A DNA stretch of 64,000 bases from an uncultured Mycoplasmatota bacterium (lineage in GTDB: Bacteria; Bacillota_I; Bacilli_A; RF39; UBA660): positions 5,164 through 69,163 of the forward strand of contig URWD01000001.1 of NCBI GenBank assembly GCA_900551525.1, given 5' to 3'. The translations under genes and the position numbers were made by a program. Below the pieces are notes generated by a model. The model saw only the letters and a program-made list of their open reading frames with translations, did no database searches and was not told the origin of the DNA. Below are positions 2,154-9,743 of the stretch, piece by piece (the stretch's first letter is position 1; every line of letters starts with the position of its first letter).

Positions 2154-3383
2154 ATGACAAATTGGGAAGAATTAAAATGGAGAGGTCTTGTTAAAGATGT
2201 GGCTGGTGATGATATTGCTGATAAAATCAATAATGAAAAAGTTACCTTTTACTGGGGAACAGATCCAACTGCAGACTCTTTACACCTAGGACATTATAGC
2301 TCACTTATTACTGCTAAAAGACTTATGAAAATGGGACATAATCCAATACTTTTATGTGGTGGAGCAACTGGTAGAATTGGAGACCCTAGACCAACTGCAG
2401 AAAGAGAAATTATAAGTATTGATACTCTTAATCACAATATTGAATGTATTAGAAAACAAATTGATAAAGTATTTGATGGTAAAGCAAAACTTGTAAATAA
2501 TTATGACTGGTTTAAAGATTATAATTTCTTAGATTTCTTGCGAGATGTTGGAAAGTATATTAATGTTAATTATATGCTTAGTAAAGATATTATTCAAAGA
2601 AGGCTTGATACTGGTATTACATATGCTGAATTTAGTTATATGTTAATTCAAGGCTATGATTTTTTACATATGTTTAATACAATGGGATGTACTATGCAAG
2701 TTGAAGGTTCTGATCAATGGGGAAATATTACTGCTGGTATAGAGTTAATTAGAAAAATGACTGGTAAAGATGCCTATGCTTTTACAATGCCTTTAATTCT
2801 TGATGCAACTGGTAAAAAATTTGGTAAAAGTGAAGGAAATGCATTATGGCTTGATATAAATAAAACATCAAGTTATGAATTGTATCAATACTTAATTAAT
2901 ACTGATGATTCTAAAGTTTATGAATATTTAAAAGTATTTACATTTTTAACACCAGAAGAAATAGATGAAATAATGGTTAAACAAAATGAAAATCCACATT
3001 TAAGAGTAGCACAAAAAGCATTAGCTAAAGAAATAATTACTGATTTACATGGTGAAGAGGAATTTAACAAAGCTTTAAATATTTCTGAATGTTTATTTTC
3101 AGATAGAATTTGGGAATTATCTGCAAATGAAATAATAGATAGTATTAAAGATATACCTAAATTTAATGTGAAAAATGGTGAACTTTTAATAGATGTACTT
3201 GTAAATAATAATGTTGTTTCTAGTAAAAGAGAAGCTAGAGAAATGATAAATGCTGGAGCAATAAGTATAAATGGTAAAAAAGAAATAGATTTGGAAAAAA
3301 ATATTACTAAAAATGATGCTATTGAAGATAAGGTTTTACTTATAAAGAAAGGTAAGAAAAATTATTTTTTAGGACTTATGTAA
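2154..3383 (+). CDS. tyrS: Tyrosine--tRNA ligase
   Basis: Class I HIGH-like motif (DPTADSLHLGHY), KMSKS-like KFGKS, and a C-terminal S4-like domain. The track ORF at 2091 extends into the T-box terminator. ATG 2154 (MTNWEELKW) lies just after the leader. Confidence 0.93.
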   Translation: MTNWEELKWRGLVKDVAGDDIADKINNEKVTFYWGTDPTADSLHLGHYSSLITAKRLMKMGHNPILLCGGATGRIGDPRPTAEREIISIDTLNHNIECIRKQIDKVFDGKAKLVNNYDWFKDYNFLDFLRDVGKYINVNYMLSKDIIQRRLDTGITYAEFSYMLIQGYDFLHMFNTMGCTMQVEGSDQWGNITAGIELIRKMTGKDAYAFTMPLILDATGKKFGKSEGNALWLDINKTSSYELYQYLINTDDSKVYEYLKVFTFLTPEEIDEIMVKQNENPHLRVAQKALAKEIITDLHGEEEFNKALNISECLFSDRIWELSANEIIDSIKDIPKFNVKNGELLIDVLVNNNVVSSKREAREMINAGAISINGKKEIDLEKNITKNDAIEDKVLLIKKGKKNYFLGLM

Positions 3384-6958: not shown

Positions 6959-7983
6959 GTAGTTGAACTTGCAATAGATGCTAGTGCATTTTGTATGTAA
7001 TTAGAATATTGTTTCTTAATTTCGTCATCTTGGATTTCCATGCCATATTCTTTTCTATAATGTTGTAAAGCATTAAGTCCAACTGATGAAGAATTATCTT
7101 TGATATATTTGTCTGCAAGTGTTTTAAGAATACTTTCTTTTAGATTTTCTAAAGTGTCTTTTTCATAACTTTTAGTTTTAAGTATTACATGATATCCAAG
7201 TTCTGTTGTAATAACTGATGTACTATATTCACCATCTTTTAATTTTGTAGCAGCATCGATTAATTCATCATAGCTTGAACTTAGTGTGCCATAATTGATT
7301 TTACCTAAAGCACCACCTTTATCCTTAGTGTCATCATCTTTAGAATATTCTTTAGCAAGTTTAGTAAATGTTTCAGTGATGTCTTCTTTATTTTTCTTAG
7401 CTGTATTTAATTTTTCAATTATTTCATTTACAGTTTTTTTAGCAGCTTCTTCAGCAGCTTTCTTTTCATCATCTTTTGCACCATCTTTAACATCAGATGT
7501 TATAAGAATATGACTTACTTCCATATCTCCGATAGATTTGTTTTTGTAATAATCTTCTATTTCTTTGTCAGTTATTTTAGTTTTAGCATATTCTTCGATA
7601 GCATGACTTTGCATGTATGATAAATAGTAATAATCTTGGAATGCTTCGATTGTTTGATAATTTGTTTGACTTTGAATAGCAGCAAGTAATTTATCTTTAC
7701 CATCATATTGTGTAATTAAAGCATTGATTGTTGCTTCAGCATTACTTTTAGCAGTATCAACATAATCTTTAAATTCTTCTTCAAGAATATATGTATCTAT
7801 CATAGTGATTAAAGTATTAAGACCCATACCATCTTTTAATTTAGTATAAAAATCATCAACACTTATCTTTTCACCATTTTTAAAACTAACAATAGCTTCC
7901 TTTCCATTTTCTAATTTTGGCACTTTACCACAGCCACTTGCAAGTAGCATGATTGCACATAATGCAACTAATTTTTTCTTCAT
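6952..7983 (-). CDS. prsA: Foldase lipoprotein PrsA (parvulin-type PPIase)
   Basis: Lipobox LLASGC. The parvulin core is EVSHILI..(about 100 aa)..ELGYHVILK. Length and architecture match PrsA. Confidence 0.8.
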   Translation of the reverse strand: MKKKLVALCAIMLLASGCGKVPKLENGKEAIVSFKNGEKISVDDFYTKLKDGMGLNTLITMIDTYILEEEFKDYVDTAKSNAEATINALITQYDGKDKLLAAIQSQTNYQTIEAFQDYYYLSYMQSHAIEEYAKTKITDKEIEDYYKNKSIGDMEVSHILITSDVKDGAKDDEKKAAEEAAKKTVNEIIEKLNTAKKNKEDITETFTKLAKEYSKDDDTKDKGGALGKINYGTLSSSYDELIDAATKLKDGEYSTSVITTELGYHVILKTKSYEKDTLENLKESILKTLADKYIKDNSSSVGLNALQHYRKEYGMEIQDDEIKKQYSNYIQNALASIASSTTK

Positions 7984-8118
7984 ATTATCTCTCCTTATAA
8001 AGGTATTATAACAATTATTTTTGCATTTTACAACGTTTTTAAGCTTTTTTTGCCCTCACACAATGAAAAATCTACCATAGAATACTAGTGAAAAGACAAA
8101 ATAAAGGAGGAAAGTTTT

Positions 8119-8205
8119 ATGAATCATTGCGGAAATAGCCTTGGTGCTGCTATAATTTTAGTACTATTTATTCTTTTAATCATCATAGTAGGGGCTTTTA
8201 TCTAA
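8119..8205 (+). CDS. YjcZ-family tiny transmembrane sporulation protein (28 aa)
   Basis: MNHCGNSLGAAIILVLFILLIIIVGAFI matches the TIGR01732-type consensus (..FALIVVLFILLIIVG..). Strong RBS aaggagg. Not in the ORF track because it is under 60 aa. Confidence 0.65.
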   Translation: MNHCGNSLGAAIILVLFILLIIIVGAFI

Positions 8206-8234
8206 AGTTTTAAATATATAAAGGGAGGTTAATT

Positions 8235-8357
8235 ATGAGTTGCTGTAAAAAAGATTGCGATTCTACTTCAGGAAATAACTTTACAGCTAGTTATGCATTT
8301 ATAGTTTTAATACTATTTATACTACTTGCTATAATCTGGGGCGGAGCATTCTATTAA
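8235..8357 (+). CDS. YjcZ-family tiny transmembrane protein (40 aa)
   Basis: MSCCKKDCDSTSGNNFTASYAFIVLILFILLAIIWGGAFY. RBS agggagg. A tandem paralogue of the preceding gene. Confidence 0.6.
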   Translation: MSCCKKDCDSTSGNNFTASYAFIVLILFILLAIIWGGAFY

Positions 8358-8361
8358 AAAG

Positions 8362-8390
8362 AGGGAAACCTCTTTTTTTTGAAGTTACTA
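8362..8390 (+). terminator. Rho-independent terminator after the yjcZ pair
   Basis: agagg-gaaac-cctct followed by T8. Confidence 0.75.
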
Positions 8391-8433
8391 AAAAAGTATT
8401 GATATTTATATAAAATTTGGATATAATGTAAAT

Positions 8434-8520
8434 GTAAGGTTATCCGAGAAAGCGGGTAGCGCCTACAAGTTTTTGCTTTGAAGGACACTACACCTAATGG
8501 CTAGTGTCCTTCTTTATACT
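8434..8520 (+). ncRNA. Candidate small RNA (about 85 nt) with its own sigma-A promoter and a 3' hairpin; putative antisense/antitoxin partner of the convergent peptide gene
   Basis: Promoter is TTGATA (8399-8404), a 17-nt spacer, TATAAT (8422-8427). The transcript would run through a GC-rich segment. A perfect 10-bp hairpin gaaggacact/agtgtccttc (8480-8512) follows, then TTTAT. No ORF. Confidence 0.3.
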
Positions 8521-8594
8521 AATTTAATAATAATTAACAGTAACAAAATAATTATTACTAAAAGAGTGTTGTTATCACTAAACTCTTCTTTCAT
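8514..8594 (-). CDS. Candidate 26-aa hydrophobic peptide (MKEEFSDNNTLLVIIILLLLIIIKLV), type I toxin-like
   Basis: Minus-strand ORF with a charged N-terminus and a single TM helix. Partial SD GGTGG lies 7 nt upstream. Minus-strand promoter is TTTACA (8722-8717), a 16-nt spacer, TATAAT (8700-8695). This predicts a roughly 95-nt GC-rich structured 5' UTR. The stop abuts the shared hairpin at 8480-8512. Confidence 0.3.
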   Translation of the reverse strand: MKEEFSDNNTLLVIIILLLLIIIKLV

Positions 8595-8846
8595 ATACTT
8601 ACCACCAGCCCTTTCTCCCCCTTTAGTTTAACCTCGGAAAAGTTCCGAACCGAATAGAAAGTAGGCACTACCACTTTTCGGGTAACAGTATGCTATTATA
8701 CATATAATTTTATATTTGTAAATAGCGATGACAAAACATGTCATAAACCGGCATGCGAATATGTGGCTTTTAAGAAGCTAAAGCTAAATTATATCTTTAT
8801 TTTCATTTTAATTTGTTATATAATCTTGTTAAGAAATGAGGTTAAT

Positions 8847-9743
8847 ATGTTAAAGTTAGAAAATGTTAGAAAAACATATGGAAGTCTAGTTGCTGTAGAT
8901 GATTTATCTTTTACGGTTAAAGATGGCAAAATTTTTGGACTTCTTGGTGAAAATGGGGCAGGTAAAACTACAACATTTAGAATGATAATGGGACTTTTGG
9001 AACCAGACAAAGGAACCATCACCTTAGATGGTAAAAAAATCGATTACAAAGAAACTGATAAAATAGGTTTTGTTACAGAAGAGAGAAGTTTACTTACTAA
9101 ACTTACTGTTTATGAAATGATTGAGTTTTATGGTACTTTGAAAGGCATGAATAAAGAGAAAATAGATAAAAAACTTGATTATTGGTTAGATAGATTTGAA
9201 ATAAAGGATTATAAATTTAAAAAGATAAAAGAACTATCTAAAGGTAATCAACAAAAAATACAATTTATATCAGCAGTTATAAATGAACCTAAACTTCTTA
9301 TATTAGATGAACCATTTACAGGTTTAGACCCAATAAATGTAGGACTTTTAAAAGATGCAGTTAAAGATTTACAAAAAAATGGATGCTCAATTATATTTTC
9401 ATCACATCAAATGGAATATATCGAAGACTTTTGTGAAGAACTTATTATTTTAGTTCATGGTAAAGCAGTTATAAATGGTAATTTAAATGAAATAAAAGAA
9501 AACTATGCTAAAAAGAATATTCAAATAAAAGGTGATAATATTCCTGTTGAAAAACTAGAAAAAATAAATGGAGTAGAAGAGGTCGAAGAAAAAGCAAATG
9601 AGTATGTTGTACATATTAAAGATGCTAGTGTATCAAAAGAAGTATTTGACGTTATTAAAAACTTTAATATAACAAAGTATGTAGTGGCAGATGCTAGTTT
9701 AAATGAGATATTTATCCATTATGTCGGAGGTAAAAATGAATAA
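8847..9743 (+). CDS. ABC transporter ATP-binding protein (ABC-2 exporter type)
   Basis: Walker A GENGAGKTT, signature LSKGNQQK, Walker B LLILDEPFTGLD, H-loop. RBS gagg precedes ATG 8847. The track start at 8763 is an over-extension. Confidence 0.85.
   Translation: MLKLENVRKTYGSLVAVDDLSFTVKDGKIFGLLGENGAGKTTTFRMIMGLLEPDKGTITLDGKKIDYKETDKIGFVTEERSLLTKLTVYEMIEFYGTLKGMNKEKIDKKLDYWLDRFEIKDYKFKKIKELSKGNQQKIQFISAVINEPKLLILDEPFTGLDPINVGLLKDAVKDLQKNGCSIIFSSHQMEYIEDFCEELIILVHGKAVINGNLNEIKENYAKKNIQIKGDNIPVEKLEKINGVEEVEEKANEYVVHIKDASVSKEVFDVIKNFNITKYVVADASLNEIFIHYVGGKNE

Follow-up and report, generated by a model that had tools for sequence, protein, structure and literature searches.

A convergent small RNA and hydrophobic-peptide cassette of uncultured human-gut Bacilli: a candidate family of type I toxin-antitoxin-like modules

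The 64,000-nucleotide stretch of an uncultured Mycoplasmatota bacterium analyzed here (GenBank assembly GCA_900551525.1, contig URWD01000001.1, positions 5,164 to 69,163 of the forward strand; below, the window) contains an unannotated cassette of approximately 380 bp between a gene for a 40-amino-acid (aa) hydrophobic peptide and an ABC transporter ATPase gene that starts at position 8847 on the plus strand. Within it, a short hydrophobic peptide and a small RNA (sRNA) are predicted on opposite strands, with convergent promoters and a common 3' hairpin. The module was found in three diverged types (A, B, and C) within a narrow clade of uncultured human-gut Bacilli, where it occupies two chromosomal sites, one between yjcZ-like and ABC transporter genes (the yjcZ-ABC site; types A and B) and the other between a Nudix gene and an AlaX-like gene (type C). 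We hold, with moderate confidence, that the cassette is a self-contained module working like toxin-antitoxin pairs of type I and represents an undescribed family. The original interpretation is supported in part, each of its predictions open to computational testing having been borne out. The peptide is the candidate toxin, and both its toxicity and its antisense control are proposals based on sequence.

Support for a functional gene in the cassette comes from the peptide open reading frame (ORF). In agreement with the original prediction, the minus strand encodes 26 codons ending 1 nt from the shared hairpin, and in every type the stop codon keeps this position. A search of related genomes, which the original prediction had proposed, yielded 24 distinct copies of the module. 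The encoded peptides are 23 to 26 codons long, with all indels in frame, and have the sequences MKEEF[SG][DN]NNTLLVII[IL]LLLLIIIKLV in type B, MNEENKNETLLVIILLLIVVILKLI in type A, and MNE(E)NKN[TA]LLLIII[VL]LI[VI]VMLKL[MI] in type C. They share an acidic N-terminus, a single hydrophobic helix lacking Pro, Gly, Cys, and Trp, and a K-L-[VIM] end. The start codon is always preserved, and the Shine-Dalgarno sequence is kept across types as GGTGG or AAGGTGA. Alignment of 11 distinct ORF sequences from the three types revealed 32 variable sites among 81 aligned, distributed as 14, 0, and 18 over codon positions 1, 2, and 3; the probability of finding no variable site at position 2 is 2e-8 (3e-8 on ungapped columns). 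The fixed second positions are T in the helix and A in the polar head, whereas the first and third positions are free, which argues that the peptide is translated and kept hydrophobic. The period-three pattern also argues against constraint on RNA structure as its source. Judging from this codon pattern, the peptide is clearly translated and under strong purifying selection to stay hydrophobic.

Transcription of both strands is predicted from two convergent near-consensus promoters, found exactly where the original prediction had placed them (Table 1). In types A and B the sRNA promoter is almost unchanged through its -35 box, spacer, and -10 box, a single spacer base being altered in one locus of a related species (L011; loci on related contigs are designated by such numbers). 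At the other genomic site, in type C, both hexamers and the 17-nt spacing are identical, whereas the spacer sequence and the flanks differ. The peptide promoter is swapped in type C for another good match, TTGCAA-16-TATAAT, at the same position, and this replacement argues that transcription of the peptide strand is maintained. Counting both strands, the window contains 10 sigma-70-type sites matching at least 11 of 12 consensus positions, only one of which, the peptide promoter at 8722, belongs to the minus strand, the other nine being plus-strand sites. From this site density we estimate a probability of roughly 1e-3 for two such promoters converging within 324 bp, and thus a chance arrangement is unlikely. 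The base composition departs in part from the 'far more GC-rich' island described originally: the G+C content is indeed high in the blocks of the sRNA (0.437) and of the 5' untranslated region (UTR) of the peptide gene (0.448, in the top 1% of 96-nt windows), but it is 0.185 in the ORF between them, and the island as a whole (0.318 versus 0.261 for the window) reaches only the top 12% of 324-nt windows.

The sRNA has a predicted fold energy of -32.2 kcal/mol (z = -4.5). Its two helices, 12 pairs at the 5' end and 10 pairs in the terminator, are kept in 17 distinct sequences, where 98.4% of the helix cells are paired, compared with 24-47% in slid controls (42-47% for five of the six shifts). 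On this comparison we consider that the sRNA structure is conserved across types. The terminator hairpin, described originally as perfect with a 10-bp stem, is indeed perfect and in the predicted place, but its stem has 11 bp. The stem core GACACTA/TAGTGTC is present in all types, whereas the loops differ. The hairpin is shared by the two predicted transcripts, as had been proposed, but in the window it does not look like a bidirectional terminator: it is followed by UUUAUAC on the plus strand and by CAAAGCAAAAAC, without a U-tract, on the minus strand, and thus looks like a terminator for the plus strand only. In type C, U-tracts are present on both sides, with the tail AUUUUC on the peptide strand. 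A scan for consensus terminators found none on either strand, its rule admitting loops of at most 8 nt, compared with 11 nt in this hairpin.

The most distinctive feature of the cassette, absent from the original prediction, is a 5' stem-loop common to the two transcripts. Both predicted RNAs start with the same 28-nt stem-loop, which corresponds to an inverted DNA repeat; since the repeats are inverted, the 5' ends of the RNAs are alike and not complementary to each other. The repeat core GGTAGYGCCTAC is found at two places only in the window, versus 0.05 expected. The likeness reaches the promoter spacers, which share ATATAAAATT, so that imperfect inverted repeats, each about 70 bp long with an inward promoter and a 5' hairpin, bound the cassette. 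In addition, the repeat arms change in concert, with CCCG on both arms in types A and B and CCCA on both arms in type C. In the peptide mRNA the stem-loop begins a few nucleotides from the inferred transcription start.

The peptide 5' UTR is approximately 94 nt long, close to the originally proposed 95 nt, and its purine run is conserved in all types. RNAalifold was applied to a MAFFT alignment of this region with poor, partly misaligned results, and therefore the folds of the individual types and their pairing probabilities were used. These reveal one architecture, in which the 5' stem-loop is followed by a long-range stem pairing the segment after the repeat module with the Shine-Dalgarno region and enclosing a small hairpin that involves the conserved GGGGGAG run. 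The same stem is built in type A from other sequence (UCAUUUUGGUU with GACUAAGGUGA) than in type B (CUAU/CGGUUC with GGGCUG/GUGG). For the Shine-Dalgarno sequence, a pairing probability of 0.90-0.99 is predicted in 14 of 14 UTR variants from the three types, compared with a mean of 0.56 for 33 control genes of the window, 18% of which reach 0.9. The Shine-Dalgarno sequence is thus predicted to be sequestered in every type. The whole 221-nt minus-strand transcript folds better than its shuffled versions (z = -3.65).

The module was followed through related contigs. Ten human-gut contigs with an identical ABC ATPase carry the island at 98% identity; in one of them (L001) a 217-aa Fic/Doc-family gene lies between the terminator of the yjcZ-like gene and the sRNA promoter. 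The same site was inspected in further species via homologues of the ABC-2 permease. At 85% permease identity, L011 contains an IS605-type tnpB gene, a fic gene, and a diverged island of type A. At 74-78% identity, the site is empty, with a 65-nt gap, in L047-L049, retains only a remnant of the 5' end of fic in L014-L017, and contains fic with a translationally coupled 118-aa ORF in L045. In L020 the order is type A module, fic pseudogene, type B module. A pattern scan of one genome per species found the peptide-side arm in three species representatives only, L020 among them, the pattern (4-6-nt gap) matching just this arm and being unable to detect type C, whereas a metagenome scan revealed further copies of types A and B, plus type C at its other site. 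A profile search of the module with nhmmer added no copy to these, either from the window or from the fetched loci (approximately 300 kb), and the type C locus was not found in the window by tblastn. Pattern scanning of IMG/VR returned one chance match inside a GC-rich phage gene and no copy of the module, and none of the 72,556 plasmids or 50,697 phage records searched with blastn matched the module. Judging from these loci, the module is an accessory unit in its own right, and within a narrow clade it has been duplicated, moved to another site, and deleted.

Table 1. Positions of the cassette features and of neighbouring or related elements (window coordinates unless a locus is named)
Feature	Position	Strand	Evidence or remark
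28-aa hydrophobic-peptide gene	8119-8205		good ribosome-binding site
40-aa hydrophobic-peptide gene	8235-8357	+	good ribosome-binding site
sRNA promoter TTGATA-17-TATAAT	8399-8427	+	consensus match 11/12
Shared spacer sequence, sRNA side	8408-8417		in promoter spacer
Predicted sRNA, ~87 nt	8434-8520	+	5' stem-loop, U-rich linker, terminator hairpin; ends inferred
sRNA 5' stem-loop, left repeat arm, GTTATCCGAGAAAGCGGGTAGCGCCTAC	8439-8466	+	repeat search; variants wobble-compatible; G-C to A-U in type C
Hairpin common to both transcripts	8480-8512	.	arms 8480-8490 and 8502-8512, perfect 11-bp stem, 11-nt loop
Hairpin loop	8491-8501		
26-codon ORF, candidate toxin, MKEEFSDNNTLLVIIILLLLIIIKLV	8514-8594	-	ORF list; intact in 24/24 distinct module copies
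Start-codon and stop-codon surroundings	8582-8600; 8507-8520	-	resemble each other in each type
Shine-Dalgarno-side (3') strand of predicted stem	8596-8611	-	minimum-free-energy folds of A, B, C and pairing probabilities
Shine-Dalgarno sequence GGTGG	8602-8606	-	7 nt upstream of ATG
Purine run GGGGGAGAAAGGG	8609-8621	-	in 5' UTR
Anti-Shine-Dalgarno (5') strand of predicted stem, CUACUUUCUAUUCGGUUC	8647-8663	-	minimum-free-energy folds
Peptide mRNA 5' stem-loop, right repeat arm, GTTACCCGAAAAGTGGTAGTGCCTAC	8686-8661	-	identical in A and B; one base lost in type C
Predicted peptide mRNA, ~210 nt or longer	~8688 to at least 8480	-	
Shared spacer sequence, peptide side	8715-8706		in promoter spacer
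Peptide mRNA promoter TTTACA-16-TATAAT	8722-8695	-	consensus match 11/12; inferred transcription start near 8688
Outer flank of module	8723-8769	.	nearly invariant between A and B, including both L020 copies; absent from type C
Palindrome ATGACAAAACATGTCAT	8728-8744		within outer flank, just upstream of peptide promoter -35
Outer parts, A versus B	8389-8460; 8655-8770		~70-110 nt each side, almost identical
Core, A versus B	8470-8650		sRNA 3' half, ORF, inner UTR; ~60% identical (estimate)
yjcZ-ABC site, window	8358-8846		
yjcZ-ABC site, L001	2824-4000		
yjcZ-ABC site, L011	1469-4111		
yjcZ-ABC site, L014	3958-4111		
yjcZ-ABC site, L020	2010-3610		
yjcZ-ABC site, L045	1987-3111		
yjcZ-ABC site, L047	3050-3114		
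fic gene, L001	2889-3542		
fic gene, L011	3000-3653		
fic gene, L045	2052-2687		
fic pseudogene, L020	~2557-3167		
118-aa ORF, L045	2689-3045		no known family; ATG 1 nt after fic stop
IS605-family tnpB, L011	1672-2960		380 aa; also in L019
Second, broken tnpB, L011	6423-7564		
AlaX-like gene, L023	4278-6026		582 aa; type C site

According to the scheme that we propose, a sigma-A-type promoter of the minus strand would drive a peptide mRNA of about 210 nt or longer, which would start with a protective 5' stem-loop, hold its own Shine-Dalgarno sequence in a long-range stem, and encode a hydrophobic membrane peptide of 23-26 aa. The convergent plus-strand promoter would drive the RNA of approximately 87 nt, whose terminator hairpin and tail would be perfectly complementary to the 3' end of the mRNA (the stop codon and the hairpin, and more in the case of read-through). 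Pairing at this end would then trigger degradation of the mRNA or block its expression, so that the membrane-active peptide stays off.

In the published description of Gram-positive type I systems (PMC8594479), an mRNA of 150-400 nt encodes a usually hydrophobic peptide of 20-60 aa and has its antisense RNA on the 3' side, and the module, with its ORF of 23-26 aa and predicted mRNA of about 210 nt, falls within this description. The closest layout is that of par, where the Fst and RNA II genes have convergent promoters and a shared terminator, the toxin mRNA hides its Shine-Dalgarno sequence in a stem-loop, and a helix is located at its extreme 5' end (PMC7472228). Convergent promoters, an ORF placed before the shared hairpin, a predicted stem at the Shine-Dalgarno sequence, and a predicted 5' helix are all seen here as well. 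However, the par repeats DRa and DRb are direct, so that RNA II is complementary at its 5' end to the start region of fst, whereas the repeats of the cassette are inverted and give similar 5' ends. The terminator of par is shared and bidirectional, whereas here a U-tract on the peptide strand is found in type C only. Fst is further distinguished by a hydrophobic N-terminal domain with a PxxxG(C) motif, a conserved tryptophan, and a charged C-terminal tail; in the peptide considered here the motif, the tryptophan, and such a tail are missing, and its polar part is N-terminal.

The original prediction had compared the cassette with bsrG/SR4 and txpA/RatA of Bacillus. The general layout agrees with these B. 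subtilis systems and with bsrE/SR5 (a Gram-positive host, an antisense RNA on the 3' side, and a small hydrophobic peptide), but homology is lacking: Rfam, Pfam, and NCBIfam searches revealed no similarity to the peptide or RNA of any of the three. In these systems the overlap is long, the Shine-Dalgarno region of the toxin is structured, and the toxins have 38-59 aa. The antisense RNA of the bsrG/SR4 and txpA/RatA type overlaps the 3' part of the toxin ORF (PMC8594479); unlike it, the predicted sRNA of the cassette extends no further than the stop codon and the two final sense codons, barring read-through of the peptide mRNA. Since the comparisons with the par, bsrG, and txpA families revealed membership in none of them, the module is filed as a new family of a known kind, under no named family.

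Among the type I antitoxin models of Rfam are those of RatA, SR4-type RNAs, and par RNA II. Neither the window nor loci of the three types gave an Rfam match at the gathering score, and none that is relevant appeared even at E <= 10 in the region 7900-9000; a weak match of the algC RNA over the 5' module (15.5 bits, E 6.8) was taken as chance. Overall, 13 families of type I antitoxin RNAs are represented in Rfam (PMC8594479). Two further systems of Gram-negative bacteria bear a partial resemblance to the module. One is hok/Sok, which has a leader ORF (mok) and whose antisense RNA lies at the 5' end of the message, whereas the cassette has no leader ORF and its antisense RNA lies at the 3' end. 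The full-length hok mRNA of plasmid R1 is kept inert by a 5'-3' fold-back, and a read-through peptide mRNA of the cassette would resemble it by folding its 3' tail on the 5' stem-loop. The other resemblance is to ShoB (26 aa) and Ibs (18-19 aa) of E. coli, in which a short polar N-terminus is followed by a hydrophobic stretch up to the C-terminus; their size and shape are similar, but the sequences are unrelated, the hosts are different, and the antisense RNAs are arranged differently.

Since types A and B lack the U-tract on the peptide strand, transcription of the mRNA in the window may continue through the sRNA gene. With read-through, the overlap would comprise the whole sRNA, and in each of the three types a helix of 24-26 bp would form between the 3' tail of the mRNA and its own 5' stem-loop. 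Such a fold-back, which would follow from the inverted repeat, is only a possibility. A more elaborate version of the type I scheme, which we consider quite unlikely, would combine the shared 5' stem-loop with a fold-back lock in a regulatory logic not described for Gram-positive bacteria. In this elaboration, the shared stem-loop would have arisen by inverted duplication of a promoter and leader and would be kept in concert; the toxin mRNA of types A and B would close through the 24-26-bp helix in a hok-like manner; the sRNA, having the sequence of the toxin 5' end, would compete for the 3' tail, or one protein or RNase would recognize both RNAs; and the divergent cores and loops of tandem A and B copies would provide pair specificity.

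Several observations weigh against the toxin-antitoxin interpretation in either form. Both transcripts, including their ends, are predicted from sequence. The 5' UTR alone folds no better than shuffled sequences (z ~0 in types A, B, and C), so that its original description as highly structured is overstated. Covariation in the sRNA is modest, with changes on both sides in 2 of 22 pairs and mostly wobble-compatible transitions elsewhere. The missing U-tract in types A and B leaves the 3' end of the mRNA, and thus the length of the overlap, unfixed; the minimal overlap in cis, i.e. the hairpin plus the surroundings of the stop codon, measures only about 40 nt, the predicted sRNA end (approximately 8516-8520) covering the stop codon and at most two last sense codons. 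The best duplex of the sRNA with the translation-initiation region or 5' UTR is no better than that of shuffled sRNA (z of +0.6 to +0.9), and thus a second contact of the par kind is unsupported. Finally, the peptide had zero matches in Pfam, NCBIfam, and PADLOC, and hence belongs to no toxin family represented there, and the module is confined to one or two loci per contig set of a narrow clade and was absent from the plasmid and phage collections searched.

The absence from plasmids and phages would also suit a non-toxic small membrane protein, for instance one of sporulation or the envelope in the manner of the YjcZ-like neighbours, tuned by a cis-antisense RNA and a self-sequestered Shine-Dalgarno sequence. 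Selection is clear for a peptide that is a candidate toxin only; the module is chromosomal and present in all 10 sampled strains of the species of the window, as would be expected of an ordinary chromosomal small-protein gene, and its neighbours are two other genes of tiny hydrophobic peptides and spore-coat genes. This explanation is harder to reconcile with the absence of the module from the syntenic site in sister species, with its duplication accompanied by strong divergence of the core and its copies at an unrelated locus, and with a hotspot shared with a Fic/Doc-family gene and TnpB. Moreover, type I toxins typically combine a convergent sRNA, a sequestered Shine-Dalgarno sequence, and a protective 5' hairpin, and over-production of peptides with such a composition is toxic in most cases. 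We regard the small-protein explanation as rather unlikely.

In some loci the gene upstream of the module ends 5-10 nt before the -35 box of the sRNA promoter and has no terminator of its own, as observed for fic and the AlaX-like gene, and the sRNA region thus doubles as its 3' UTR; a fic mRNA, in particular, would end in the sRNA sequence. This arrangement is consistent with two unrelated genes, one for a trans-acting or 3'-UTR-derived sRNA and one for a small peptide, that share a terminator hairpin as an economy of space and have no functional antisense link. The overlap, perhaps no longer than the hairpin, and the lack of extra complementarity to the translation-initiation region point in the same direction. 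On the other hand, the pair always moves as a unit, in duplication (L020), relocation (type C), and deletion (L014), and the two genes have a homologous promoter and 5' module with arms changing in concert, which makes their independence very improbable.

The imperfect inverted repeats that bound types A and B, spanning the common spacer sequence and the 28-nt module, together with the variable site and the IS605-type TnpB in L011 and L019, could also be ascribed to a decayed mobile element (a miniature inverted-repeat transposable element or an IS200/IS605-derived palindromic element) whose terminal inverted repeats mimic promoters and hairpins. We find this hardly credible in view of the strict coding pattern of the internal ORF, the lack of a visible target-site duplication, and the low copy number, no copy other than those at the one or two loci per contig set being present in the 64-kb window or the fetched loci. 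In addition, the right-end region of the L011 TnpB is unrelated in sequence, and the 'empty' site of L014 is not a clean excision but a deletion that also took most of fic. A riboswitch or leader of the downstream ABC-2 exporter, considered in the original prediction and suggested solely by the position of the GC-rich segment directly upstream of the ABC operon in the window, is effectively refuted, as the ABC genes and the structured UTR lie on different strands, no such genes adjoin copy A of L020 or any type C copy, the operon keeps its own promoter and Shine-Dalgarno sequence in species without the island, and the Rfam search described above yielded no riboswitch or leader.

The cassette adds a well-supported candidate family of type I-like systems, in uncultured gut Bacilli that are known only from metagenome bins and in which no such system is annotated. 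The gene callers behind every fetched contig missed the 26-codon gene, and no Pfam or NCBIfam model exists to name it. The coding signal obtained from the three diverged paralogous types is unusually clean and illustrates that small-protein genes can be validated with metagenomes alone, and the shared 5' stem-loop is a concrete and testable regulatory feature. Since type I systems are numerous, one more family would be of moderate interest unless the fold-back or the mimicry of 5' ends proves real. The yjcZ-ABC hotspot with its Fic/Doc and TnpB genes may be a small defence or addiction island.

Across the clade, this site is indeed variable (Table 1). Its observed states are an empty site, fic with the 118-aa ORF, a remnant of the fic 5' end, fic with the module, the module alone, tnpB with fic and the module, and two modules separated by a fic pseudogene. 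The Fic/Doc protein has 211-217 aa and matches PF02661 (E 8e-8) and the PADLOC candidate defence family PDC-S04 (E 1.9e-11). It contains the motif QMFLDGNKR, compared with the canonical Fic motif HxFxxGNGR. The 118-aa ORF of L045 occupies the position of the module and may encode a Fic partner such as an antitoxin or immunity protein. In L011 and L019 the tnpB gene is flanked by the yjcZ-like gene and fic, and the region downstream of it in L011, structured and GC-rich, may be an omega-RNA or the right end of the element. The possibility that the island itself is a TnpB omega-RNA was rejected, as the region 3' of the L011 tnpB has no similarity to it, and neither of the two TnpB copies of that locus is similar to the island.

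The two tandem genes upstream of the cassette were both assigned originally to the YjcZ family. The 28-aa peptide does resemble it, although below the threshold (TIGR01732, 19.2 bits versus the cutoff of 21.35), but the 40-aa peptide had zero family matches in Pfam and NCBIfam; it is called as a gene in all related contigs. The originally reported lack of ORFs of 60 aa or more in the island holds in a stricter form, as no ORF longer than 44 aa overlaps it in the ORF list of either strand. The plus-strand 44-aa ORF itself (8497-8631) was rejected, being unconserved and starting in the hairpin loop that differs in type A, with a codon pattern that fits the minus frame only. Likewise rejected was a plus-strand ORF of 17 codons from 8728, which has no Shine-Dalgarno sequence and in copy A of L020 contains an internal stop codon. 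The palindrome in the outer flank may be an operator.

Conservation between types A and B is mosaic: the outer parts on each side are almost identical, and the core is far more diverged, even within L020. This suggests gene conversion or strong constraint on the flanks, together with diversification of the core. In the type C contigs the AlaX-like gene of L023 is only approximately 80% identical to those of L030, L038, and L039, whereas the Nudix genes on the other side of the module are 98-100% identical, pointing to recombination in or close to the module. In types A and B (also in L011 and L020), the shared hairpin has UUAGG in its loop when read on the peptide strand, which may represent a YUNR-like U-turn motif such as initiates the kissing of RNAs in par. 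Finally, the surroundings of the start codon resemble those of the stop codon in each type (GUAUAUGAAAGAAG and GUAUAAAGAAGG in type B; UUAUGAACGAAGA and AUAUGAGCAAAGA in type A), and through this likeness the tail of the sRNA could pair weakly with the peptide start region.

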